Shown here piece after piece: positions 5,337 to 22,923 of a stretch of 64,000 nucleotides of DNA. A program made the translations under genes and the position numbers. Source of the stretch: Candidatus Latescibacterota bacterium. Its GTDB lineage: Bacteria > Latescibacterota > UBA2968 > UBA8231. The stretch lies in the NCBI GenBank assembly GCA_965248265.1, contig CBDFJF010000001.1:2048001-2112000 (forward strand), read 5' to 3'. Under the pieces are notes generated by a model, which was given only the letters and a program-made list of their open reading frames with translations, was not told the DNA's origin and made no database searches. Position 1 is the first letter of the stretch. Each line of letters starts with the position of its first letter.

Positions 5337-6491
5337 ATGCCCTTCCAAAGTACATTCGATTTCCGTTTGCCGGCCCGTCTCATCCACGGTTCCGGATCCA
5401 TTGCACGTCTGCCGGAAGTCGTCGACTCGGACGCCAAACAGCTGATCGTCACGGATCGCGGATTGATCGAAGCCGGAGTCGTGGATCAAGTCACGGCGGT
5501 CCTGGACTCTACGGGCATACCCTATTGTGTCTTCGACGGTGTTGGCGCCAATCCACTTGGCAAGAATGCCCATGCCGGAGCGCGTCAGTACATCAAAGAA
5601 GATTGCCACGGACTGATCGCCGTGGGTGGGGGCAGCCCGATGGATGTCGCCAAAATGGTCGGCATACTGGCGACCAACGGCGGCCGTATCGAGAGCTACC
5701 TCGGAGCTGGCAAGGTACGCGCCGACCTACCCCCATTGGTCTGCGTGCCGACGACCTACGGCACGGCCAGCGAGGTAACCCAGTTCAGTGTTCTGACCAA
5801 TCCGAAAACCAACAACAAGGATCCGATCATCAGCTGGAAAATCGTCCCACAGGTGGGCATCCTCGACGCCGATCTGTCGGTTGCCCTGCCGGCTTCAGTG
5901 GGTGGGCCTACCGGCATGGACGCGCTCACGCACGCGATCGAGTCCTATACCAATCTGCTGTCTACGCCGATCACGGAGGGCATCGCCATTAGCGCCATCG
6001 AGTTGATCGGGGCCAGTATCCGCACCGCCTGTGCCAACGACTACGAGACGGAGGCGACCCAGGACATGCTGATCGCCAGCGCCATGGCCGGTATCGCGTT
6101 CTCACAGACCCGGCTTGGTAACGTGCACGCCATGTCCCATCCGGTGGGGGCGCAGTTCGGTGTCCATCACGGGTTGGCGAATGCCATCCTGCTGCCCCAT
6201 GTGATGGAGTACAACCTGTCTGCTCGCCTCGACAAGTTTGCCTCCGTCGCGCAGGCCCTGGGCGAGGACGTGGACGGTCTGCCCGCCAGCGAGGCCAGTG
6301 AACTGGCCGTCGAGCAGGTGCGGCAACTGAATCATGACCTGGGAATACCCCCTCGCTTGAGAGACGTAGGAGTTCGGGTCAGCGGTATTCCCAAACTCGC
6401 ACGAGCCGCCATGAACAGCGGCAACATCGCCGTCAACCCCCGCAAGACCACGCAGAAGGATATCGAGCAACTCTTCCGGAGCGCTGTCTGA
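5337..6491 (+). CDS. Iron-containing alcohol dehydrogenase
   Basis: GGGSPMDVAK, PTTYGTASEVT, DALTHAIE, HAMSH, HGLANAILLP. Confidence 0.92.
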   Translation: MPFQSTFDFRLPARLIHGSGSIARLPEVVDSDAKQLIVTDRGLIEAGVVDQVTAVLDSTGIPYCVFDGVGANPLGKNAHAGARQYIKEDCHGLIAVGGGSPMDVAKMVGILATNGGRIESYLGAGKVRADLPPLVCVPTTYGTASEVTQFSVLTNPKTNNKDPIISWKIVPQVGILDADLSVALPASVGGPTGMDALTHAIESYTNLLSTPITEGIAISAIELIGASIRTACANDYETEATQDMLIASAMAGIAFSQTRLGNVHAMSHPVGAQFGVHHGLANAILLPHVMEYNLSARLDKFASVAQALGEDVDGLPASEASELAVEQVRQLNHDLGIPPRLRDVGVRVSGIPKLARAAMNSGNIAVNPRKTTQKDIEQLFRSAV

Positions 6492-10997: not shown

Positions 10998-12554
10998 GTG
11001 ACCCTCATGTTGAAGATGGCCTCCATACGCTTCAAAATCATCGCGCCGCTCGCGGTCTTCATTCTGGGTATCGCTGTATTCAATGTCTACTACTTCCCCA
11101 CCAAAGAAGCCAGCATCATCAGCGCCGTTTTCGAAGACCGGCTGCGCCAGGCCGTCGCCACCCTTACCCTGGGCACGAGCATCTCAATCAGCTCGGGGAG
11201 CCTCGAGGGCGCTGAAGCTACCGTGCAGTTGTTGGAGCGTGATGAAAACATCGCCTTCCTCTTCGTCCTGGACCCCGACGGTGCTGAACTCATCAGTCAC
11301 GGCCAACCGGAAGAGGGTAGTGAGATGGAAAACCTGGAGGCCCTGGCGCAGCTACCGCAGTCCGTGTTCGTCGACAGGAAGCCGTACCTGCTGCTGAAGG
11401 AAGAGATCATCTTCGACGACGAGTTGCTTGGCTCCGCGATTGTCGGACTGGACACTAGAGAACGGGAACGGCTTATCCGCGAGAGCATCCTGTTCACGGT
11501 GATCGTCAACGTCATTCTGGCGGCGCTGGGTATAGGTGTCATCGTATGGGTGACCCAGTCCGTGATCCTCGCATCCGTGCGCGAAGCAGTCGATGTCGCG
11601 GAGGCCATCGCCACTGGTGATCTCACCGTCCAGGTAGGCGGCGAGCGCCAGGATGAGATGGGGCAGCTCTCGAATGCCATAAACGTCATGGCCGGTAACC
11701 TCGGATCCCTGATTGGACAAACGCAGCGATCGGGTATCCAGATAACCTCGTCGGTGACTCAGCTGGCGGCTTCGGGTAAGCAGTTGGAGGCGACGGTCAA
11801 CCAACAGGCAGCGGCGACCAATCAGGTAGTAGCCACAGCCAAGGAGATCTCTTCCACTTCACACGAACTTCTATCGACCATGGGTGAAGTCTCATCGATG
11901 GCCGAGGACACAGTGGGATCCGCCGATTCTGGCCGCCAGGGTCTCAACCGTATGGAGTCGACGATGCAGGAGATGGAAGAAGCGACACAATCCATCTCCT
12001 CCAAGCTGGCCGTCATCAATGAGAAGGCCTCGAGCATCAACTCGGTGGTCACGACCATCACCAAAGTCGCGGACCAGACCAATCTCCTGTCCCTCAACGC
12101 GGCCATTGAAGCGGAAAAGGCCGGAGAATACGGCGTCGGTTTCGCCGTGGTCGCGCGGGAAATTCGACGGCTCGCCGATCAGACCGCGGTGGCCACCCTG
12201 GACATCGAGCAAACCGTGAAGGAAATGCGCTCCAGCGTCAGCGCCGGTGTCATGAGCATGGACAAATTCTCGGAGCAGGTTCGGCGCGGCGCTGACGAAA
12301 TTCGCAATGTGGGAACCCAGCTGGCCGGTATCATCGAACAGGTTCATGCCCTGACCCCCCGTTTCGACACAGTTGAGCAGGGCATGGAGGCTCAGTCCCA
12401 GGGAGCGGTTCAAATCAGCGAATCGATGGTCCAACTCAACGACGGGGCGCAGCAGACGGCGACCTCGCTACGCGAGACCAACGAAACGCTCGAGCAACTC
12501 TCGCAGGCCGCCCACGACATGCAGGCAGAAATCGCCCGCTTCAAGCTCACCTGA
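10998..12554 (+). CDS. Methyl-accepting chemotaxis protein, WspA-like signalling domain
   Basis: Two TM segments flanking a periplasmic domain, HAMP (GDLT..DEMGQL), tip [40 protein letters not shown]. Confidence 0.93.
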
Positions 12555-12591
12555 CCGCTGCCACTGACTGCGAAGCCACACGACCCTTCTG

Positions 12592-12843
12592 ATGGACCAT
12601 CTCCCGTCCGCTGATGCTCTCGTCCAGGTCCTCGACCCCCTGATCCGGCAGCGTACAGGGGTCGATTTGGCTGAGATGAACGCGACGATGCTGCGCACGG
12701 CTGTCGCCCAACACATGCAGGACCTGGGCATCGAAGAGTTTTCCGCCTATGGGCAGCTGCTCCACGGCGCAGAAACCCGCGTCGACGAGCTCTCTGAGAG
12801 GCTGGCGGTGATAGAATCCTGGTTCTTTCGCGATGTCGGTCCC
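12592..12843 (+). pseudogene. CheR/WspC methyltransferase N-terminal fragment
   Basis: RQRTGVDL...LAVIESWFFRDVGP is a CheR N-terminus; the SAM-binding domain is absent and the ORF stops at 12912. Confidence 0.75.
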
Positions 12844-13001
12844 TCTACGATCTGCGACCACGAGACCTCAGTGAGCCGCCGGTTACCGTGGGCACGGCGA
12901 CCTCGACGCTGACCCGTAGTTTGTTTCATTGGCACGACAAGGACGTGGCCTTGCTTGACGATGATGCCCTCTTTGCCGGTTTGCGGAGCAGAGTGCTGTG
13001 A
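12843..13001 (+). pseudogene. CheW/WspD C-terminal fragment
   Basis: Second frame reads LYDLRPRDLSEPPVTVGTATSTLTRSLFHWHDKDVALLDDDALFAGLRSRVL*, like a WspD C-terminus; its TGA overlaps the GTG of cheA. Confidence 0.65.
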
Positions 13002-15265
13002 CCGAAGACGGGATGAGTGATTTCTTCGACGATCTAGGGTTGCTGGACTTGTTCAGCACGGAGATGGAATCCCTGTCTGGCGTGCTCAACAATGGCTTGC
13101 TGGCGCTGGAGCGCGACCCCTCCGACAACAGCGGCATCGAGGAGTTGATGCGTGCGGCCCACTCCGCCAAGGGTGCAGCACGGATTGCTCAGTTAGACCC
13201 GATCGTCGAATTGGCGCATGCCATGGAGGACTACTTCGTGGCCGTTCAGGAGGGCAAGGCGCATGTCGCCGCCGAGCATGTCGACGTGTTGCTCGCCGGC
13301 GTCGATGCGATGGAGCAACTATCCAAGGTGGCCACCGATGAGTTCTCGCAGTGGCTGGAGAGCCAGCAAACCGGCATCTCCGCACAGGTTGACAGAGTGC
13401 AGTCGCTGACTTCGAAGGAAGCTGCTCCGGCCGGCCCGCCGCCCCCGGTGCCCGAAGCGCCTCTTGATTCCGATCTTCAACAACTGCCAGCGGCGAGCGC
13501 CAGCGATGCGGCTGAAGGAAAGGAGGCGCGCGATCGCGTCGTCCGTCTCACCTCCGACAGCCTCGACCGTCTGATGTCACTGGCTGGTGAGGTACGTGTC
13601 GACACCTTGTGGCTGCGGCCGTACGCCGACTCGCTGCTGCAACTGAAATCCAGCCAGGCGGGCCTTGCCAACATCCTGGAAAACATTCGCCGTGCAGAGG
13701 GAGAGAACGGTGAGACCTCCAGCGCCGACTTCGATGAGGCCCAACAAAGGATCGAGGACTGCCGCAACATGCTGGCCGAACGCATGGAAACGCTCGAGAC
13801 CTTCGCGCGCCGCACGGCCGACCTGAGCAGCCGCTTGTACCGAGAGGTTATCAACAGCCGCATGCGGCCGTTCTCCGACGGAGGGCAGGGGCTGCTTCGA
13901 CTGGTCCGCGATATGGCCCGTTCGCTGGGCAAGAAGGTGCGACTCGAGACCGTCGGCGAAGACACCGACGTCGATCGCGACATACTAGAAAGGCTTGAAG
14001 CCCCCCTCACCCATCTCGTACGCAACTCCCTCGATCATGGGATCGAACTTCCGGCCGAGCGCGTCGCGGCGGGCAAGCCAGAGGAAGGCGTGATCCGGCT
14101 GGAGGCCAGGCACAGCGCCGGCATGCTATCCATCGTCATTTCCGACGACGGCAAGGGCATCGACCTGACGAAAGTCCGCGCCAAGGTGATCGAACGTGGC
14201 CTGACCGATGAGAGTACAGCCGAAAGCCTGTCCGACACCGAGCTGCTCGAATTTCTGTTCCTGCCGGGCTTCTCCACGGCCACGGAAGTGACGGAAATCT
14301 CCGGCCGCGGCGTTGGCATGGACGTCGTCCAGAGCATGGTTCAGGAGGTGGGTGGCATCATTCACTCGACGACTCAGCTCGGCAGTGGCACTTCGTTCCA
14401 CATGCAGCTCCCCTTGACGCTGTCGGTAACGCGTACCCTGATGATGAAAATCGGCGACGAACCATACGCACTGCCCATCGCCCGTGTCGACCGGACCGTG
14501 GTGCTGCCGCATGACCAGATCGAGTTGGTGGAGGGCAAGGAGTATGTCAGTCATGAAGGCAAGCGGATCGGCCTGGTGTCGGCCAGGCAGATCCTTGAAA
14601 TTGGCGCCGGCCACGAACGTTCTGACGTCCTCCACGTCGTCGTCGTCAGCGACCGCCTCAACACCTACGGTTTGGTCGTCGACGCTTTCCTGGGAGAGCA
14701 TGACCTCGTCGTCAGGCCGCTCGACCCGCGCCTTGGCAAAGTGCAGGATGTGAGCTCGGCCGCCTTCACGGAGGAGGGCGCACCCATCCTCGTGCTCGAT
14801 TCTGACGACCTGGTGCGCTCGATCGATGCGCTCATCAGTGGCGATCGCCTGCGAAAGGTCGTCCAGGTCGACGGCGAGGCTGTCGGTGTCGAACACAAGC
14901 GCGTGCTCGTAGTGGACGATTCCATCACCGTGCGGGAGGTAGAACGAAAGCTCCTCGAAAACCGAGGCTATGAAGTAGATGTGGCCGTCGATGGAGTAGA
15001 CGGTTGGAACGCCGTGCGCCAGAAGACCTACGACCTGATCATCAGCGACGTCGACATGCCGAGAATGACCGGGATCGAATTGGTGCGCCATATCAAGAGA
15101 GACCCGGAGCTAAAATCGGTTCCGGTGATGATCGTGTCCTACAAGGACCGTGAAGAAGACCGTTTGCTGGGACTCGAAGCAGGTGCCAACTACTACCTAA
15201 CCAAGAGCAGCTTTCGCGACGAGACACTCCTCGACGCCGTGCGAGAACTGATAGGCAATGCCTGA
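12998..15265 (+). CDS. Hybrid CheA histidine kinase-receiver (WspE-like)
   Basis: Hpt RAAHSAKGAARI, HLVRNSLDHGIE, DDGKG, GFST..ISGRGVGMDVV, CheW domain, receiver SDVDMP. Confidence 0.93.
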   Translation: MTEDGMSDFFDDLGLLDLFSTEMESLSGVLNNGLLALERDPSDNSGIEELMRAAHSAKGAARIAQLDPIVELAHAMEDYFVAVQEGKAHVAAEHVDVLLAGVDAMEQLSKVATDEFSQWLESQQTGISAQVDRVQSLTSKEAAPAGPPPPVPEAPLDSDLQQLPAASASDAAEGKEARDRVVRLTSDSLDRLMSLAGEVRVDTLWLRPYADSLLQLKSSQAGLANILENIRRAEGENGETSSADFDEAQQRIEDCRNMLAERMETLETFARRTADLSSRLYREVINSRMRPFSDGGQGLLRLVRDMARSLGKKVRLETVGEDTDVDRDILERLEAPLTHLVRNSLDHGIELPAERVAAGKPEEGVIRLEARHSAGMLSIVISDDGKGIDLTKVRAKVIERGLTDESTAESLSDTELLEFLFLPGFSTATEVTEISGRGVGMDVVQSMVQEVGGIIHSTTQLGSGTSFHMQLPLTLSVTRTLMMKIGDEPYALPIARVDRTVVLPHDQIELVEGKEYVSHEGKRIGLVSARQILEIGAGHERSDVLHVVVVSDRLNTYGLVVDAFLGEHDLVVRPLDPRLGKVQDVSSAAFTEEGAPILVLDSDDLVRSIDALISGDRLRKVVQVDGEAVGVEHKRVLVVDDSITVREVERKLLENRGYEVDVAVDGVDGWNAVRQKTYDLIISDVDMPRMTGIELVRHIKRDPELKSVPVMIVSYKDREEDRLLGLEAGANYYLTKSSFRDETLLDAVRELIGNA

Positions 15266-15290
15266 CTGGTGTGAAGGAATAGGCTAGACC

Positions 15291-15671
15291 ATGGTCATAC
15301 GCACAAAGAAGAACGTCCTCATTGTCGACGACTCACCCTTCATTCGCGAAATGGTCGGCAAGATCGTCGAACGCCTGGGACACCTTGTCTCCAAGGCTGG
15401 GGATGGCATCGAGGGCATCGCGGTCGCCAGCAACCAGGAAATCGACGTAATCATCCTCGACGTCCAGATGCCCAAAAAAGACGGGTTGCAGACGCTCAAC
15501 GAGCTGCGCGCCGATCCACGCCACGCTCAAACGCCCATAATCATGCTCACCTCGGTCGGAGATGGCGATATCGTCAAGCGCAGCATCCAGGGGAAGGCGA
15601 CACACTACCTCCTCAAGGACGACCCCCAGGAAATCATGAAGCGGCTCAAAGAAGTCTTCGCTACGCTCTGA
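15291..15671 (+). CDS. Single-domain response regulator (CheY-like)
   Basis: VLIVDD, LDVQMP, IIMLT, YLLK. Confidence 0.9.
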   Translation: MVIRTKKNVLIVDDSPFIREMVGKIVERLGHLVSKAGDGIEGIAVASNQEIDVIILDVQMPKKDGLQTLNELRADPRHAQTPIIMLTSVGDGDIVKRSIQGKATHYLLKDDPQEIMKRLKEVFATL

Positions 15672-15829
15672 TGGACAGCTGAGTTCGCGTCAGTGGACCT
15701 TCCGGATCGAGCCACCGTCGCTCGATCCGGGCAGCGAGATTCCCCTTGCGGGGGTTCGCCCCGCACGCGAAGCTATGTCTCCAACCGCTGACCCCATCCC
15801 CCACTTCCCAATCCTCACATAGACTGCAC

Positions 15830-17071
15830 ATGACAAAGCCCGGCGCCGAGGCCTGGAAGTCGTCGACTCTGGCCAAGACCTACATCGAGGAGGTCCGCAT
15901 GGGCATCCCCCTGGCTGAAGAGCAGATCGATATCATGCTGCGGCTCGTCGCCTCCAAAGACCAGCCGATGTCGAACTTTCTGGACCTTGGCTGCGGCAAC
16001 GGCATCCTCACCTCCGCGCTGCTGGACAGCCATCCGGAGGCACGCGGAGTCCTCGTGGATTTTTCAGCCCCGATGCTGGATGCCGCTCGTACGGCGCTAT
16101 CAGACCACGCAGCGAAGCTCACCTTCGCCGAACTCGACTATGGAGATCCTTCCTGGTCTGAGGCAGTAGCCCGGCACGGGCCGTTCGATGTCGTCGTCTC
16201 CGGGTTCTCCATTCACCATCAGACGGATGTGCGCAAACGCGGACTGTACGCGGAGATCTTCGACCTGCTCGGACCCGACGGTCTGTTCGTAAACATCGAA
16301 CATGTGGCTTCGGTCAACGCCTGGGTGCGCCAGCGTTTCGACGACTACTGCATCGATTCCTTCTACGCAACCCATGTGAAGGGGGGCGGCACGCGTACGC
16401 GGGAGGAAATTGCGGTCGAGTTCTATCACCGTCCGGATAAAGCAGCCAACATTCTCGCTCTGGTCGAGGATCAATGCGCCTGGTTGCGTCAGACCGGCTT
16501 CCAGGATGTCGATTGCTATCTCAAGATCCTCGAGCTGGCCGTTTTCGGCGGACGACGCCCCCCGGTGAGCGCTGACCCGGTGTCCAGTCCAATTGTGCTG
16601 CGACCGATCGCCTCTGAAGACCGCGATTGGATCGTGGAAATGCTGAAGCAGCACTGGAGCGCGACCACCGTCGTCGCCCGCGGCCGCACCTTTCAGGGTG
16701 ACGAGCTGCCTGGGTTCGTCGCCCTCATCAACGACGAGCGCGTAGGATTGGCGACCCACAGTATCGAAGAGGGAGAGTGCGAAATCATCACCCTCAATTC
16801 CTTCCGGCGCGGCCTCGGTATTGGCACCGCGTTGGTAGAGGCAGTGCGCGAGGCTGTCGCTGCCAAGGGCATCAAGCGGCTGTGGGCGGTGACGACGAAC
16901 GATAACACCGGGGCGCTCGCCTTCTACCAGAAGATCGGCTTCAGCATCACGGCCGTGTACCCCGGGGCCTTCGACTCCGCCCGCAAACTGAAACCGGAGT
17001 TGCCCCTCATCGGTTACGACGGCATACCGCTCAATGACGAGATCGAGCTCGAACTGACGCTGACAACGTAG
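15830..17071 (+). CDS. Class I SAM methyltransferase fused to a C-terminal GNAT acetyltransferase
   Basis: FLDLGCGNG, DFSAPML, SGFSIHH; then RRGLGIGTAL, VTTNDNTGALAFYQKIGF. Confidence 0.85.
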   Translation: MTKPGAEAWKSSTLAKTYIEEVRMGIPLAEEQIDIMLRLVASKDQPMSNFLDLGCGNGILTSALLDSHPEARGVLVDFSAPMLDAARTALSDHAAKLTFAELDYGDPSWSEAVARHGPFDVVVSGFSIHHQTDVRKRGLYAEIFDLLGPDGLFVNIEHVASVNAWVRQRFDDYCIDSFYATHVKGGGTRTREEIAVEFYHRPDKAANILALVEDQCAWLRQTGFQDVDCYLKILELAVFGGRRPPVSADPVSSPIVLRPIASEDRDWIVEMLKQHWSATTVVARGRTFQGDELPGFVALINDERVGLATHSIEEGECEIITLNSFRRGLGIGTALVEAVREAVAAKGIKRLWAVTTNDNTGALAFYQKIGFSITAVYPGAFDSARKLKPELPLIGYDGIPLNDEIELELTLTT

Positions 17072-17307
17072 TTCGCAAGCGTTCGCACGGACTCAATCAA
17101 CTCAGGTGTCAGATCTTCATCCGGCACTTCGATCCCGAACTCCGCCTCCACTGCGGCAATGACCTGAAGGGTGGCTATCGAATTCAGACCCAGCCCACCC
17201 TCGAACAGAGCCTCGTCGTCTGCTATCTCATCGGCTGAAAGCTGGAGTTCGAGGGCCTTGATTACACAGCCTTTCACACGTTCGCTCACGCTCTCTTTTT
17301 GTCCCAT
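17014..17307 (-). CDS. Acyl carrier protein
   Basis: Acidic small protein with GLGLNSI (phosphopantetheine Ser), EAEFGIEVPDEDL, SVRTLANYV; RBS GGAGG. Confidence 0.85.
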   Translation of the reverse strand: MGQKESVSERVKGCVIKALELQLSADEIADDEALFEGGLGLNSIATLQVIAAVEAEFGIEVPDEDLTPELIESVRTLANYVVSVSSSSISSLSGMPS

Positions 17308-19244
17308 CTCGCTTCCTCCGATTGTGAATGACCAGTTTTCCGGGCGCGCCCGGAAAATTGGTGTACGATGCGCTCTGTGAGCCGGCGAATCCCGGACTCG
17401 GAGGCTATCGATATTGCTGCGATGGAAAAATGGTCCTCCAGACGCTGTAGGGTTCGTGACATGTCCGTGTCACCTATACGGTGTTCAACCGCCGGCGAAG
17501 CGCCGGCGATCCTGGACTGGTCGCTCAATGCCAGAGCCAACACCGGACACTTACCGATGGCTCCGATCGCTTCAATGGTATCCCGGATGTAGGATTCGGC
17601 ATCAATCGCGTTGACGACGAGGACACAGGCGTCCGGCTTGATGCCCAGCATGAAACTCAACGACGGCAGGGCGAAGGTTTGGGGGTCGTGCAGGTCGAAG
17701 GGGATGGTACCGGACTGGCTCCCGGCTATGATCAGATCTGGCCGTTTGCGCTTGCACAGCTCGCGCATTTTGCCGTCGAGGTACTCGGGATATGAGTCGA
17801 GCGGGAGCTTTACGGTTGATGCGTGTCCGATCGGAAACGCGTAGTCCATGCCGAGCAATTCGGCATGCGGTTCCGTTCCAATCTGGCCGATGCAGTAACC
17901 CCTTTCAGCCAGGATGCGGCGCAAGGCGAGCTGTAGTGTGAGCTTGCCTTGAGAAGAACTCGTCCCGAACACGGCTAGCACGGGCACATCGACTGGCTCA
18001 GTCTGCACGGGGGGTAGCAGCTCTCCCTCCGCGGGTACCTCCGGCGCCATGAACGTCAGACCCTGCTCCCTGGCTGCTCGCAGGTAAGGTTGGTATCGCG
18101 GTGCGGACAGCGTCTGAAAGCTGAAGACATTGAGTTGCCTCTCCAGTGCCCTTGAGAGCCACCGGGCGAGGATATCATCCCCGCGGAGCCGGCCCAGTTC
18201 CCCCGTATATCCAAGGATCAGCGTGTCAGCCTTCTCCATGACGCGGTCGATGTGGCTGACGATGTGGATACCAGACCGGTTGACCCCGAAAGCCTCCCCC
18301 GCGTCCTTGCCGACGTTGCCTCGCAGCGGCAGGTCGACGATACCGACGACCTCGAATTCAAGCAGATCGCTGAAGCGGACGAGGGCGTGCATCTCTTTGG
18401 TGAAGGGATACAGTATGGCTCTGCTGAGCCACTCGTAGTTGCGACCCGGCCGCCCTGATGGATTTTCCAGATCGGCGTGTGAACTCTCGGACGCGCTTCC
18501 CTTGCTGTTTTGGCCCAGCAGGACGCGCACGCCTTGAAGGGAGTGCCCGGGGAAATGCTCCCGAATCAGAGCCACGAATGCACTTACTTTCGGTGCGGCG
18601 AAACTGTTGCCTCCCATCCAGACCTCTTTGCCGCCAGCCCAGCGCAACCGTTGACGACCGCCATTAGCCAGACACTCCGGCACTTCGCCATGCCGATGGA
18701 TGTAATCGAATTTCCCTGGCAGGTCCCGCGAACCGACACTGATGACCGGTTCGAGGCAGGCGGGATAGCTGGCGGTCGATCTGTTTGCCATGGCCGCCAC
18801 CACGATGACATTGGCCTGCATGGCACGCTGGCAGATGTCGAGAAGGTCCCGGCGAAGCGAGGCATCTTCGGTGCCCAGACTGAGGTTGACGACGTCCATG
18901 CCCTCCTCGATCGCCCAGGCAATGGCCGCCACCAGGAGCCTACCATCCGCTCGCATGGACTCGTCTAGAATCCGCACCGAGTACAACTCGACGGCCGGAG
19001 CAATTCTGCGGATGATGCCGGCGCAGGCCGTGCCATGGCCAGCGCGATCGGTGACGGCGACTCCAACTCGCACCCCGCCGCCGGGGCTCAAGGACAGATC
19101 GACACCGCGCACGAATCCCGCCGATTGCTGAGCCAGCGCGTCGATGCCGCTGTCAACGACAGCGACCTTGACCCCTTTCCCGTCGAGTCGATCGAATGGA
19201 ATCTTGTGATCTTTGCCCATGACACCATGAGTCGTGCTCATCAC
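17286..19244 (-). CDS. S8 (subtilase) peptidase fused to a DUF1611-like P-loop domain
   Basis: Catalytic triad VAVVDSG, GHGTACAG, GNSFAAP; C-terminal half YPFTKEMH...VPVLAVFGTSSSQGK...GTEPH...GSQSG. Confidence 0.85.
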   Translation of the reverse strand: MMSTTHGVMGKDHKIPFDRLDGKGVKVAVVDSGIDALAQQSAGFVRGVDLSLSPGGGVRVGVAVTDRAGHGTACAGIIRRIAPAVELYSVRILDESMRADGRLLVAAIAWAIEEGMDVVNLSLGTEDASLRRDLLDICQRAMQANVIVVAAMANRSTASYPACLEPVISVGSRDLPGKFDYIHRHGEVPECLANGGRQRLRWAGGKEVWMGGNSFAAPKVSAFVALIREHFPGHSLQGVRVLLGQNSKGSASESSHADLENPSGRPGRNYEWLSRAILYPFTKEMHALVRFSDLLEFEVVGIVDLPLRGNVGKDAGEAFGVNRSGIHIVSHIDRVMEKADTLILGYTGELGRLRGDDILARWLSRALERQLNVFSFQTLSAPRYQPYLRAAREQGLTFMAPEVPAEGELLPPVQTEPVDVPVLAVFGTSSSQGKLTLQLALRRILAERGYCIGQIGTEPHAELLGMDYAFPIGHASTVKLPLDSYPEYLDGKMRELCKRKRPDLIIAGSQSGTIPFDLHDPQTFALPSLSFMLGIKPDACVLVVNAIDAESYIRDTIEAIGAIGKCPVLALALSDQSRIAGASPAVEHRIGDTDMSRTLQRLEDHFSIAAISIASESGIRRLTERIVHQFSGRARKTGHSQSEEARWDKKRA

Positions 19245-19938
19245 GCGGCCCGACGATGATCGCCCTCAATGGCCGCGATCCTGCGCCGTCGCCAATCCAC
19301 GAGCACTCGCAACAACCCTTTAGGACCAGACCACTCATACACAAACGTGCTTATGCCGCCCCATGAGACGTCGTCATAACCATAGCTGCGCTTCGTCGTC
19401 AGGCCCCGGAGCAAGTCGGTTTCCGCGAAGTAGAAACCCAGATCGGGATGCCGGGCGATCAACGGCAGGTAATTCTCCATCAAGAACGAACTGTCCGGCA
19501 GAGCCCGAAAACCAAAGCGTTTTAGACTGGAATACCCTTGCGGTTGAACACCCAGGTGACGGCCTCAATGCGATCGAATGAACCACTGCACAATACCCGA
19601 ATAACGGGAAGGGCAAGTTGGCGCCAGAAGGTCCCACGTCGCTGAAAGAGGGGTGCGGTTTCAGCCGCCGACATGATGGCGACCCGGCCATCATCTTGTT
19701 TCTCGTCAACCTGCACCGAGGCGATGACGGCACCATCGCACTTGAGAATGAAAGTGCCGACTCGATTGGGGCGGCGTTCCTCCCGCACCAGAGCGCGGGC
19801 CGTAACGGTTTCGGCCTGAGCTGGTTTCGTCCGGTATCCCTGCGAACTCAACGACCAGTGCTCATCGCGCATCCAGTTCAGAAACTGCGCGAACGCTTCG
19901 GCGTTGTCGGGGTTGAGTTTGGCTTTCACGAACGTCAT
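19241..19938 (-). pseudogene. GNAT-family acyltransferase split by a 1-nt frameshift
   Basis: FQRRG motif; ...TWVFNRKGIPV-TA-AAA CGC TTT GGT TTT restores to Y-K-R-F-G-F-R...LMENYLP by adding one base at about 19522; both ends overlap neighbouring genes by 4 nt. Confidence 0.75.
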
Positions 19939-21590
19939 GCCCTGACCCTGACCTCGGCGATCTTGCCCTCCTCCATGGTCACTATGTAGTCGGCGATCTC
20001 CGTCAGTGCCTTGCGGTGGGCGACCATGATCGTCGTGCGCTCACGGCGTACCCGTTGCAGGGCTTGCAGAATTCGCGCTTGCGACTCCACATCAAGCGCG
20101 GAAGTCGGCTCGTCCAGGATGAGGATGGGATGGTCGAATAGGAATACCCGAGCCAGAGCCAGACGTTGCCTCTGGCCGTCCGACAGGCCGGCGCCGCCTT
20201 CGCCCACCAGCGTGTCGTAGCGGTCGGGCAGCGCGCAGATCTGGTCATGGATGCAGGCCACGCGGGTTGCCTCCACCATGTTGGCTTCGGTGACATCTCT
20301 CCCGAACAAGAGGTTGTCTCTAATTGTGCCCTGAAACAGCTGCGTGCCCTGCATGGCGAATCCGATCTGCCGTCGCACGGTGTGCAGTTGCTGTGCCCGT
20401 ATGTCGGCGCCATCGATCGATACCACGCCGGCGTCCGGGTCATAGAAGCGCGGAATCAGCTTGACCAGCGTGCTCTTGCCGGCGCCACTTCGACCGACGA
20501 GGGCTACCATGGCACCGGCCGGGATGGTCAGGTTGATTCGATCCAGTACGCGCTCCGTACCGTAGCTGAAACTGACATCGTGGAAGCATACGTGCCCCTC
20601 GATCCGGCCAAGCGCCGGCAACGAACGGTCATTGCGAATGGCGGGGAGGCGTTCGTAGATCTCGAAGAAGCGATCGGCATGCACCAGGGTGACCTGCAGA
20701 CGTGGCCACAACCCAATCAGGGCCTGCAAAGGCCCGTACAAATAGCCGACGTAGGCGGAGAACGCCATCAGCGTACCCAGCGAGAGATGACCATGCAGCA
20801 CCTGAGTCCAGCCGTACCATCCGTACGCCGCGGTTCCCACTGCCTTGATCACGACCCCCGCAAAGCCGATTGCCGAGCCTATGCAGCTGATGCGCACCCG
20901 CAACCTGGCTACCGAGGCGAAGCGCTCCCGCAGATTGAGGTAGAAGCTTTCTTCGAGGGAGAGCGCTTGAACCGTCCTCATACCCGCCAGGGACTCTATG
21001 GTCTTGGCCGACAGCTCGGCGCTGCCCTCCGCGATATGCCTGGCATACCGGCGCTGATAGCGCCCCGAGACGGCTACCAGCAGCGAATCGAAAGGCAGTA
21101 CCGCGATGCTGATCAGCGCCAGCCTCCAGTTGATATAGATGAGCACGGCGGGAAAAACGGCCAGCTGCAGCAGGTTGATGATCACACTTGAGATCAGCGC
21201 CACGGTGCCCGACACCGAGCTCTGCATGTCCTGGAAGCGCGCCATAATCTCTCCGGTTTCACTCTCGTCGTAAAAACGGAAGTCGAGGCTCTGCAGATGG
21301 CGATACAGACGGGACTGAAAGTCAAAACTCAAGCCGATGCCGATACGCTGCTGAAACAGCCCGGTCGCCGTATTGGTCACACCCAGCACCAGAGAGACGG
21401 CGGCTCCGAGAATCAGCAGGCAGTACAGCAACCCGAAGTCCTGGTGCGGGTAGACATCGTCGATCAACACCTTCGTCAGGTAGGGGCCGGGCAGACTTAT
21501 CACCGCGATCAGAATGGCCGCCAGCAAGGCCTGTAACAGCTGCATCCAATAGGGTCGCAGCAGCGCGAGAATTTTACACACCGACTTCAT
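19935..21590 (-). CDS. ABC exporter, fused permease/ATPase (no C39 peptidase domain)
   Basis: N-terminal TM domain, Walker A GRSGAGKST, signature LSDGQRQR, ILILDEPTSALD. Confidence 0.93.
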   Translation of the reverse strand: MKSVCKILALLRPYWMQLLQALLAAILIAVISLPGPYLTKVLIDDVYPHQDFGLLYCLLILGAAVSLVLGVTNTATGLFQQRIGIGLSFDFQSRLYRHLQSLDFRFYDESETGEIMARFQDMQSSVSGTVALISSVIINLLQLAVFPAVLIYINWRLALISIAVLPFDSLLVAVSGRYQRRYARHIAEGSAELSAKTIESLAGMRTVQALSLEESFYLNLRERFASVARLRVRISCIGSAIGFAGVVIKAVGTAAYGWYGWTQVLHGHLSLGTLMAFSAYVGYLYGPLQALIGLWPRLQVTLVHADRFFEIYERLPAIRNDRSLPALGRIEGHVCFHDVSFSYGTERVLDRINLTIPAGAMVALVGRSGAGKSTLVKLIPRFYDPDAGVVSIDGADIRAQQLHTVRRQIGFAMQGTQLFQGTIRDNLLFGRDVTEANMVEATRVACIHDQICALPDRYDTLVGEGGAGLSDGQRQRLALARVFLFDHPILILDEPTSALDVESQARILQALQRVRRERTTIMVAHRKALTEIADYIVTMEEGKIAEVRVRA

Positions 21591-22753
21591 GCGCTTTTGA
21601 CTCGAAAGCGTATGGCCTCAGTGTCGACCCTCCCCAGCCCTCGCGACGCCGCCCGCCACAGCAATTCGAGAATGCGCCCGCGATCGACGATGATGCGCAC
21701 CGTCGCAGTCATGCCCGCGAAGAATTCATGCGACCGGTCGAAATCATTGATGGTCGTCTGGCGCAGCGCAACTCGAACAGGATAGCCCGCCGGCGTCGGT
21801 TGTACGCCGATGCGGGCGACCTGTCCGTGCAGTATCTCGTATTCCATGTGCGGAAAACCACTTACCTCGATCCGTGCGCTCTGACCGAGTCGTACCCGCG
21901 GGATATCGGTCTCAGCGATGTCCGTCTCAACGACCCAGGACTTAGCCTCGGCCACCTCCACGACGGTTTCCCCCGCTTCGACCCGATCGCCCTGACGCTC
22001 TTCCAGTTTTGCCGTCAGCACCACGCCGTCCAGTGGCGAGAGCAGAAGAGTCTGCTCGATCTTGCGCATGAGACGCTGCCGCTCCTCTTCCCATTTCTCC
22101 AGCTCCCTACCCAGTTCCTCCGGCTCGCGTTCGCGACCCTCATGTGCCGACTGGCGCGTTGCAGCCAGTTTCCAGAGTGCCACTTTGTGCTCGAGCACTC
22201 CCTGCACCCGCTGCACGGGAATCAGATCGTCGACAGGGTTGCGGCGCCACCCAAGTAGGTTGCCGGATACTTCGTCGGCTGCCGAATGCTCCAGGCGCAC
22301 TCTCCTCACTTCGAGAGCCGCCCGCTTGACCTCGATTTGCGCCACCGTCAGTTCTTCACTGGCAATGCGGCGATCACTGTGCAGTCGAGCGCGCAGACGG
22401 TACAGCCGGCTGTTCATGATTGCAATCTCGTCGTCAACCCTTTCCAGCTGGCTTTTCCACTCCCGGTCATCCAGCGATACCAATCGATCGCCGGCGCGCA
22501 CCAGGGCGCCAGAGGGTACATGGACCTCGCTGACGATGCCGGCCACCACCGACTTGACCTTGTGGCGTACGGCGGGCGCCAACACCCCTTCGCCTTTGAC
22601 GCTTATGTCCATATGGAAAAGCCAGGCCAGGATCGCGGCGGACCCGGCGAATACTATGAAGGCACCCAGCAGGATCCACAGGAACGAGCGCGTCAGGGCG
22701 AAGCCGGTATCCGCGAACAGGTCATTGCCGTCATGTTGATCGGGTGTACTCAA
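21587..22753 (-). CDS. HlyD-family membrane fusion protein
   Basis: Single TM, lipoyl-like halves (GIVSEVHV..G..V.AGD.L; SPLDGVV), coiled coil, AGMTATVRI; start TTG 22753 uncertain (ORF open to 22849). Confidence 0.88.
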   Translation of the reverse strand: MSTPDQHDGNDLFADTGFALTRSFLWILLGAFIVFAGSAAILAWLFHMDISVKGEGVLAPAVRHKVKSVVAGIVSEVHVPSGALVRAGDRLVSLDDREWKSQLERVDDEIAIMNSRLYRLRARLHSDRRIASEELTVAQIEVKRAALEVRRVRLEHSAADEVSGNLLGWRRNPVDDLIPVQRVQGVLEHKVALWKLAATRQSAHEGREREPEELGRELEKWEEERQRLMRKIEQTLLLSPLDGVVLTAKLEERQGDRVEAGETVVEVAEAKSWVVETDIAETDIPRVRLGQSARIEVSGFPHMEYEILHGQVARIGVQPTPAGYPVRVALRQTTINDFDRSHEFFAGMTATVRIIVDRGRILELLWRAASRGLGRVDTEAIRFRVKSA

Positions 22754-22923
22754 AGAACTCTCACCGGTGGCTGGAATCGTCCACGGTTCCGATATGTGTA
22801 ACAAACCATGGACGTGGAGGTGGCCTCTTGCAGAGGTAACTCGGGGCAAATGGTGTGCCCGCGTACTACAGTGCCCTCGATCCGGTCGAGAAAACTGGCA
22901 TGAGCGAGAGGCTCACCGGCCAT
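22750..22923 (-). CDS. Possible 57-aa small ORF upstream of hlyD
   Basis: ATG 22923 after purine-rich AAGGGGGCAAGG; its TGA overlaps the proposed hlyD TTG; no recognisable family. Confidence 0.25.
   Translation of the reverse strand: MAGEPLAHASFLDRIEGTVVRGHTICPELPLQEATSTSMVCYTYRNRGRFQPPVRVL

Follow-up and report, generated by a model that had tools for sequence, protein, structure and literature searches.

On the minus strand of a 64,000-nucleotide stretch of a Candidatus Latescibacterota genome (assembly GCA_965248265.1, contig CBDFJF010000001.1, positions 2,048,001 to 2,112,000; hereafter 'the window'), co-oriented and overlapping genes encode a HlyD-family adaptor, an ABC exporter, a GNAT-like acyltransferase (the gene of which is disrupted here), a fusion of an S8 subtilase with a DUF1611-like region, and an acyl carrier protein (ACP). 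We somewhat favour the view that this operon is the core of a system in which a leader guides the processing and export of small secreted proteins, which might be bacteriocin-like or might resemble the ribosomally synthesized and post-translationally modified peptides (RiPPs). A ribosomal precursor of ~70-150 residues with a conserved N-terminal leader of ~22 residues would lose this leader to the cytoplasmic S8 domain; the fused DUF1611 domain and the dedicated holo-ACP would perform an acyl-transfer step, either by loading the ACP or by passing an ACP-bound group to an amine of the substrate; and the product would be exported by the peptidase-less ABC protein together with HlyD and a TolC-type channel encoded elsewhere. 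Leader cleavage by the S8 domain and export via ABC, HlyD and TolC appear well supported by domain identity, invariant residues, synteny and the leader family described below. The acyl-transfer step we infer from (i) the pairing of DUF1611 with an ACP, (ii) the one known DUF1611 activity, that is, N-acetyl transfer, and (iii) the variable acyltransferase-type neighbours of the pair.

A conserved protease-DUF1611 fusion paired with an acyl carrier protein

The fusion protein comprises an S8 domain (residues 22-247; nt 18504-19181) and a DUF1611-like two-domain region (residues 275-652; nt 17289-18422). The former matches the Peptidase S8 model PF00082 with 93.2 bits against a cut-off of 21.8, and subtilisins in the PDB are matched at 4e-39. 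The subtilase triad (D31, H70, S214) is invariant, as is the P-loop G427-T436, in all 42 aligned fusions, and the protein thus has, as judged by its sequence, the intact active site that is expected of a leader peptidase. Assignment of the second region to DUF1611 follows from PF07755 (29.5 bits; cut-off 25) and from the two-domain fold: PDB entry 2g0t is found by sequence at 2.4e-4, and the predicted structure of the region (pLDDT 80.4) has its best Foldseek matches in 2obn, 7xrj and 2g0t (E ~1e-13, TM 0.58-0.72). The model for the DUF1611 N-domain, PF17396, scores 19.6 bits and hence stays under its cut-off of 22.6. The small protein encoded downstream of the fusion is an ACP according to the PP-binding model (43.5 bits; cut-off 20.8) as well as several ACP models, and its Ser43 is conserved without exception in the 14 homologues that were aligned. 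The tail of the ACP past the conserved domain is Ser-rich and not common to the homologues. In-frame TGA codons flagged in several homologues had raised the possibility of selenocysteine, which we rejected; in L004, the one homologue that was checked, the TGA simply terminates the protein at its natural end.

Relatives of the fusion number 483 proteins at E<=0.001 (among 8000 candidates scored), and the best 120 all combine S8 with DUF1611. A full-length fusion (E<=1e-100) is present in 42 of the 76 genomes of the same family, representing 12 of 18 genera and often in several copies, and the same threshold is reached in 25 of 41 sampled relatives. The highest identity to the window protein amounts to 47% in species-representative genomes, with none above 49% in the family-wide search; protein-database relatives include ones that are 91% (P0001), 71% (P0002) and 67% (P0004) identical. 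Named records carrying the fusion family are metagenome-assembled genomes (MAGs) of Latescibacterota, KSB1 and Gemmatimonadetes.

Synteny was assessed by tblastn with the window proteins in 16 fetched loci (L011-L026) holding 18 copies of the fusion. The ACP gene lies directly downstream of 16 of these copies and within 5 kb of all 18, while a full-length ABC gene is located at most 4 kb upstream of 13 copies, with fragments or a copy interrupted by an insertion sequence (IS) in three more. A window-type HlyD is found in six of the 16 loci, HlyD homologues of 32-35% identity preceding the ABC gene in L016, L017, L018, L022 and L023, and the window ABC protein is 50-55% identical to its counterparts in L016, L018 and L020-L023. 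Further loci show the fusion adjacent to the ACP (L027 and L028, from KSB1 and Gemmatimonadetes MAGs) or to the ABC gene (L029-L034, L038-L041). In L030 the ACP is 8.5 kb upstream; the same order in L029 and L032 would place it beyond the fetched DNA, and no ACP was found in L031, where only 3.3 kb upstream had been fetched. Sequence comparison thus presents the S8-DUF1611/ACP pair as strongly conserved and ABC/HlyD as the more variable part. The preliminary description of the window had treated the genes as one unit, which is borne out by the adjacency of fusion and ACP with ABC/HlyD often upstream.

Leader-bearing open reading frames in related loci

In 11 of the 16 loci, open reading frames (ORFs) of 70-150 residues have a common N-terminal leader of ~22 residues, M..L.K.....Y.....V.AY, and mostly follow the ABC gene closely, a CPBP gene often coming next. 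M, K and Y are invariant in the leader alignments A1 and A7, and V and A nearly so; the residue pattern matches eight of the ten leaders found first and 13 ORFs in 452 kb of related loci. The cores that follow are highly divergent, being Gly/Ala-rich and hydrophobic, beta-rich, or Cys-bearing, and no Pfam or NCBIfam model matches these ORFs. Three tandem paralogous leader ORFs of 71-75 residues with hydrophobic, Cys-containing cores (L024:2610-3607) are typical of multi-precursor peptide loci. Since subtilisins favour large hydrophobic P1 residues, cleavage would probably occur after the invariant Tyr.

Neither of the findings that would tell against a peptide system, namely a lack of synteny and a lack of precursor genes, was made: homologous loci are syntenic and contain leader ORFs. 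The peptide had been regarded as RiPP-like; the candidate substrates, with 70-150 residues, are larger than typical RiPPs. A variant arrangement is seen in Latescibacterota locus L030:1188-8206, where ACP, rhodanese, MauE/DoxX, a GT1 glycosyltransferase, a BtrH_N-like gene, a short ORF, ABC and fusion follow one another; the short ORF (within 5529-5726) has a leader-like N-terminus that ends in EF instead of AY, and a C-terminus with a CCCC run.

Export

Alignment of the window ABC protein covers positions 137-671 in the HlyB model TIGR01846 and positions 143-688 in the bacteriocin ABC model TIGR01193; because these alignments begin only at about position 137-143, it has no N-terminal C39 peptidase domain. 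The top NCBIfam model is MsbA, with 346.6 bits and a cut-off of 602, and the window HlyD likewise scores under the cut-off of TIGR01843 type_I_hlyD (121.7 against 208.65 bits). The three parts of a type I secretion apparatus, i.e., ABC exporter, membrane fusion protein and outer-membrane channel, are nonetheless all encoded in this genome, the first two in the operon and the third elsewhere, where 21 OEP-repeat matches and ~10 TolC-type genes are found. The window contains no TolC-type gene and no radical SAM gene, just as the preliminary description had stated.

These same genes would also be in place for ordinary type I secretion of a large repeat-type protein, the protease and ACP being unrelated passengers. 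We consider this highly improbable: the operon has no gene for a large repeat protein next to it, the flanking genes encode neither a repeat-type protein nor a type I substrate that ends in a C-terminal secretion signal, curated type I secretion models score the window genes below their cut-offs, and it is the protease-ACP pair which forms the conserved core, with ABC/HlyD varying more.

Neighbouring genes and the proposed acyl-transfer step

Recurrent neighbours in the related loci are (i) CPBP/Rce1-like intramembrane proteases and TPR proteins, (ii) YknW/Yip1 membrane proteins with HlyD and ABC-2 pumps, and (iii) redoxin, MauE/DoxX, rhodanese, glycosyltransferases, AraC-type response regulators and transposases. 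The CPBP proteases, together with the ABC-2 or YknW-type transporters, look like self-protection. Directly after the ACP, nine copies besides that of L012 have a gene for a 340-residue family with weak BtrH_N similarity; L012 encodes a clear BtrH_N/DUF4872 protein there (9.4e-12), and L020-L023 instead encode 900-residue proteins that combine PCP and condensation domains. The acyl transfer might have variable helpers, namely proteins of the GNAT-like, BtrH_N-like or condensation-domain kinds. No radical SAM gene was found among 72 scanned neighbour ORFs of related loci, nor were adenylation, ketosynthase or other chain-building genes; polyketide synthase, fatty-acid synthase and ligase genes are absent from the window and the scanned neighbours.

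A glycosyltransferase gene lies directly beside the BtrH_N-like gene in four loci (GT28 in L013 and L015, GT2 in L026, GT1 in L030), and this arrangement hints that some products are glycosylated. IS transposases are located inside or between system genes at L025:3013-6059, where the ABC gene is split, L011:6262-7578 and L013:12490-13845, which suggests that the loci are prone to rearrangement.

The ACP also permits a different reading, in which the S8-DUF1611/ACP pair makes or modifies a non-ribosomal, ACP-bound small molecule (an acyl-amino acid or a lipid) for export by ABC/HlyD, with the leader ORFs being unrelated neighbours or immunity or regulatory peptides. Such a product would be consistent with the invariant Ser of the ACP, with the PCP-condensation proteins of L020-L023, and with MsbA, a lipid exporter, being the best, if sub-cut-off, NCBIfam model of the ABC protein; moreover, the only DUF1611 protein among the PDB matches that is named for a function is, according to the excerpted text of its description, an N-acetyltransferase of a free amino acid (PMC12363236). 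We nevertheless hold this reading to be improbable. A protease with an intact triad is fused to DUF1611 in all 42 aligned members, which is sensible only with a peptide substrate; the leader ORFs recur across most of the loci and occur in tandem in L024; counterparts in Firmicutes reside, as far as the excerpted publications go, in bacteriocin-type clusters; and the 72 neighbour ORFs offer nothing that would build a chain.

The GNAT-like gene is disrupted

The span 19241-19938 measures 698 nt and is not one ORF. Hence, the earlier account of five co-oriented, overlapping genes holds for strand, overlaps and domain calls but not for this gene, the Pfam GNAT match of which reaches only E 0.084. 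Frame A ends with the TAA at 19522-19524, and the C-terminal half is an ORF of 80 residues in a different frame (19241-19483); in the homologues L016:8116-8841 and L014:10753-11478 both halves form a single frame of 241 residues. We compared contigs of public sequencing runs over window positions 19000-20200. Contigs X1 and X3, from the probable source runs, are identical to the window over this span, so that the break is real in this genome. Contig X5, representing a relative from another study, is ~95.5% identical (54 of 1198 bases differ, and there is one gap); an additional base behind 19519 together with substitutions yields one open frame there, which reads like the homologues. The gene is thus truly disrupted in this genome, by a one-nucleotide deletion and a stop, and intact in a ~95% identical relative.

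Identification as GNAT rests on intact homologues. The family has 69 homologues, many with PF00583, and the model of an intact homologue (pLDDT 87.6) matches PaiA, SpeG and RimL at TM 0.6-0.69 over its first ~175 residues, followed by a beta-rich tail of ~65 residues without structural match. The acyltransferase fold is hence found in the intact homologue, and an intact reading frame is lacking in the window. Since 14 of the 16 related loci have no such gene, we do not regard it as a core part. One of the loci that do, L014, contains three tandem modules of TPR protein, CPBP protease and GNAT-like gene (L014:11506-18135) with a Mutator-family transposase between modules, and two of these GNAT-like genes are fragments of only 62-64 residues.

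The broken gene raises the question of whether the family works as proposed while the window copy is a decaying remnant that makes no product, its precursor, CPBP and BtrH_N-like genes having gone from the locus. We deem this unlikely, yet likelier than the other alternatives: the frameshift and stop are in the source contigs and not in the ~95% relative, the operon lacks neighbours that L016, the locus closest to it in architecture, has on its flanks (precursor, TPR, CPBP and BtrH_N-like genes), and transposases in L011, L013, L014 and L025 indicate that the loci are unstable. A remnant is less easily reconciled with the other four ORFs, which are full length and retain all invariant catalytic residues, with the preserved start/stop overlaps, with the presence elsewhere in the genome of intact candidate substrate, CPBP and BtrH_N-like genes, and with the mutated gene being one that most related loci do without.

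Possibly dispersed parts in this genome

The preliminary description had suggested that the cluster is either partial or works in trans, and the distribution of parts over this genome fits that suggestion. Six-frame translation of the whole genome gives 140,885 ORFs, two of which match the leader pattern. One of them is a candidate precursor gene on contig 2 (G000:C2:1649193-1649537), immediately upstream of the single CPBP-family homologue that this genome has (E 4.5e-20). Behind the CPBP gene come genes for an ABC ATPase and for an ABC-2 permease, and the set spans G000:C2:1646152-1649537. An AAGGAG box stands 9 nt before the GTG start of the candidate, and its 14 database homologues (114-153 residues, 71-95% identity) have invariant leader residues. 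Profile-profile comparison (hhalign) aligns the candidate leader to the leaders of the relatives in register, with P 5e-4 and a probability of 31%. For one of these homologues, P0191, as for the 71%-identical fusion P0002, the contig on record is 4,134,791 bases long. Because the scores of hidden Markov models (HMMs) given below are low, the assignment leans on genomic context, on a post-hoc pattern and on the hhalign alignment; taking these together, we consider that the contig-2 candidate probably belongs to the leader family. It may be the distant substrate gene with which the window operon is paired. Complex prediction of the fusion with the contig-2 candidate yielded a score of 0.07 and a mark of 0.32, values that we count neither for nor against the pairing, and the ESM Atlas held no usable match for the candidate. 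By eye, the candidate gene (L036:9193-9537, G000 contig 2) looks less G+C-rich than the window, for which ~60% was measured; a lower G+C content would fit recent acquisition.

A homologue of the BtrH_N-like family (E 1.4e-42) is located at C2:2614705-2615883, alone among betaine-synthesis genes. Apart from the one precursor candidate, the genome-wide search that the preliminary description had envisaged gave no TIGR04068 orthologue, the best match having 76.3 bits against a cut-off of 500, and generic matches of that level are also present in 12 of 14 control genomes. We thus picture the system of this genome as possibly dispersed and reduced, with an inactivated GNAT-like gene and with its likely substrate gene, CPBP gene and ABC-2 pair on contig 2.

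Several observations weigh against the leader-guided system that we favour. There is no leader ORF in the window, be it in the operon or in its flanks; five of the 16 loci (L011, L012, L015, L017, L026) likewise have none, and none was detected by HMM in L027-L035, the variant of L030 having been seen by eye only. A leader HMM built without the contig-2 candidate scores that candidate with 4.7 bits (E 260; 97th among 140,885 ORFs), and 6.4 bits are obtained with a full-length HMM built without it. No ORF of the own genome came below E 3 with the first leader HMM, and the leader pattern was written after the candidate had been seen. The BtrH_N-like gene of this genome has no Pfam match at E<=0.001, and a BtrH-like N-terminal domain in the 900-residue PCP-condensation proteins was considered and rejected (BLASTP E 2.9). 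Acylation, moreover, is a step that we infer: neither an AMP-ligase nor a phosphopantetheinyl transferase was seen among the 72 scanned neighbour ORFs, and the GNAT-like gene, besides being broken here, was found in just two of the 16 loci (L014, L016). Of the cleavage, acylation and export that had initially been proposed, cleavage and export have come out well supported, whereas the acylation has lost the GNAT on which it had leaned.

Operon layout and flanking genes

The genes of the operon are compiled in Table 1. Neighbouring genes overlap by 4 nt each at 21587-21590, 19935-19938 and 19241-19244, and by 22 nt at 17286-17307.

Table 1. Genes of the operon in the window.
Feature	Position	Strand	Length and profile matches
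HlyD-family periplasmic adaptor (membrane fusion protein)	21587..22849	-	420 aa from first possible start TTG 22849; HlyD_3 1.3e-15, HlyD_D23 8.3e-13, TIGR01843 3.8e-35
ABC exporter, one transmembrane and one ATPase domain	19935..21590	-	551 aa; ABC_membrane 1.3e-33, ABC_tran 1.5e-31
GNAT-like acyltransferase gene, disrupted	19241..19938	-	frame A 19522-19938 (138 aa); frame B readable 19564 to 19241
S8 subtilase-DUF1611 fusion	17286..19244	-	652 aa; Peptidase_S8 2.4e-26, DUF1611 6e-07, QhpE model 2.8e-34, TIGR04066 1.1e-23
Acyl carrier protein (ACP)	17014..17307	-	97 aa; PP-binding 3.9e-11; phosphopantetheine-site Ser43

The operon had been taken to begin at 22923, which does not hold: the ATG there is out of the HlyD frame and opens an ORF of 57 residues that ends at 22750. 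The HlyD frame itself is bounded by a stop at 22913-22915 and has its first start codon in the TTG at 22849; the true start may be located further in. The 57-residue ORF (22750-22923, minus strand) overlaps the 5' end of the HlyD gene in another frame, is preceded by a GAAGGGGG box ~8 nt upstream, and has neither a Pfam match nor the leader motif. A scan of promoters and terminators revealed nothing exceeding shuffled expectation.

The flanks of the operon are unrelated to it, consisting of chemotaxis genes, a methyltransferase-GNAT gene that converges on the ACP, and a divergent DCC1-like oxidoreductase gene. The adjoining chemotaxis cluster (10998-15671, plus strand) comprises a methyl-accepting chemotaxis protein, a hybrid kinase of the CheA type that includes CheW and receiver domains, and a single-domain response regulator. 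The convergent methyltransferase-GNAT gene (15746-17071, plus strand) extends 58 nt into the 3' end of the ACP gene (17014-17071).

Implications

If the proposed system exists, hundreds of clusters in poorly known phyla would share one route to secreted peptides or small proteins, with several copies in many of the genomes, a leader family of their own and a carrier-protein-dependent step outside the textbook bacteriocin or RiPP pathways. DUF1611 would acquire a role in protein maturation, and the 'peptide maturation system' genes TIGR04066 and TIGR04069 of gut Firmicutes would be explained. The leader motif offers a practical handle for product mining, and this genome, with its split system and one dead accessory gene, would represent a natural test of which parts are dispensable. 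It is tempting to go further and to speculate, in a proposal that we put forward with considerable reserve, that fusion and ACP define a large class, so far undescribed, of small proteins of ribosomal origin in Latescibacterota-like bacteria, KSB1, Gemmatimonadota and related uncultured diderms: a bifunctional enzyme would remove the leader and then acylate the new N-terminus from the ACP, and the resulting lipidated or capped secreted toxins would be exported by ABC/HlyD. Such an activity would be the first protein-directed function assigned to DUF1611.

Comparison with known systems

Literature searches, which did not cover subscription journals, retrieved no paper describing a fused S8-DUF1611/ACP system. 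QhpE/QhpF, which serve in the maturation of quinohemoprotein amine dehydrogenase, combine a subtilisin-like leader peptidase of the cytoplasm with an ABC exporter. QhpE (NF049966) is the best-scoring curated model for the window S8 domain (2.8e-34; 118.4 bits, under the cut-off of 165 bits), and the window S8 domain is, like QhpE, predicted to be a cytoplasmic subtilase that adjoins an ABC exporter. In contrast to the Qhp system, there are no QhpC, QhpD (radical SAM) or dehydrogenase genes here, while the DUF1611 fusion and the ACP have no counterpart there.

The exporters of double-glycine bacteriocins (TIGR01193, TIGR01000) likewise achieve leader-dependent export of small proteins by an ABC/adaptor pair, and TIGR01193 matches the window ABC protein at 8.5e-92. 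However, the latter is without a C39 domain and the leader is without a Gly-Gly motif; removal of the leader probably falls here to a separate S8 protease in the cytoplasm.

Goadvionins are lipopeptide RiPPs that depend on an ACP or acyl donor, a GNAT and a carrier protein being encoded beside the peptide and the exporter. Selidamides, as far as the excerpted description goes (PMC8784127), likewise resemble the window operon in that a ribosomal peptide and its exporter are accompanied by a GNAT-type acyltransferase and by a carrier protein. A functional GNAT with a fatty-acyl or polyketide supply beside a precursor, as characteristic of both, is not encoded in the window: the GNAT is broken here and rare in the family, and fatty-acid and polyketide genes are lacking. 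The universal partner of the ACP is, instead, the DUF1611 domain, which those systems lack.

DgcN is a DUF1611 N-acetyltransferase of D-glutamate catabolism that, according to the part of its description considered here, acts on a free amino acid (PMC12363236; PDB 7xrj). It shares the two-domain fold of the window region (Foldseek E 7.9e-13, TM 0.58-0.65) at an identity of only 17%, and the DgcN model is absent among the NCBIfam matches of the window fusion. While DgcN is free-standing, without protease or ACP, the window DUF1611 region is fused to an S8 domain with an ACP beside it.

The closest parallel is provided by Firmicutes, in which TIGR04066 and TIGR04069 genes lie beside a subtilase and an ABC transporter, along with the radical SAM protein TIGR04068; excerpts of two papers describe this set at the level of annotation, function included (PMC4573289, PMC10731318). 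As annotated there, it has the same four types of parts as the window operon, i.e., DUF1611-like and ACP-like proteins together with an S8 protease and an ABC exporter. The link to clostridial TIGR04065-04069 that had been drawn at the outset reflects real matches, which stay under the curated cut-offs: TIGR04066 matches the fusion over residues 275-560 only (83.8 bits, E 1.1e-23; cut-off 200 bits), and TIGR04069 matches the ACP with 18.2 bits (E 0.0026; cut-off 70 bits), with general ACP models scoring higher. Because these cut-offs are missed and the radical SAM protein TIGR04068 is lacking, we do not file the window genes as members of TIGR04066 and TIGR04069. The two gene sets differ further in that (i) protease and DUF1611 form one polypeptide here and are, in the excerpted annotation, separate genes there, (ii) radical SAM is absent here and a HlyD adaptor, befitting diderm export, is present, and (iii) the leader family differs, with cores that are mostly not Cys-rich here. 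By analogy, then, the genes of the window might well work like a fused, diderm, radical-SAM-free variant of the Firmicute gene set.

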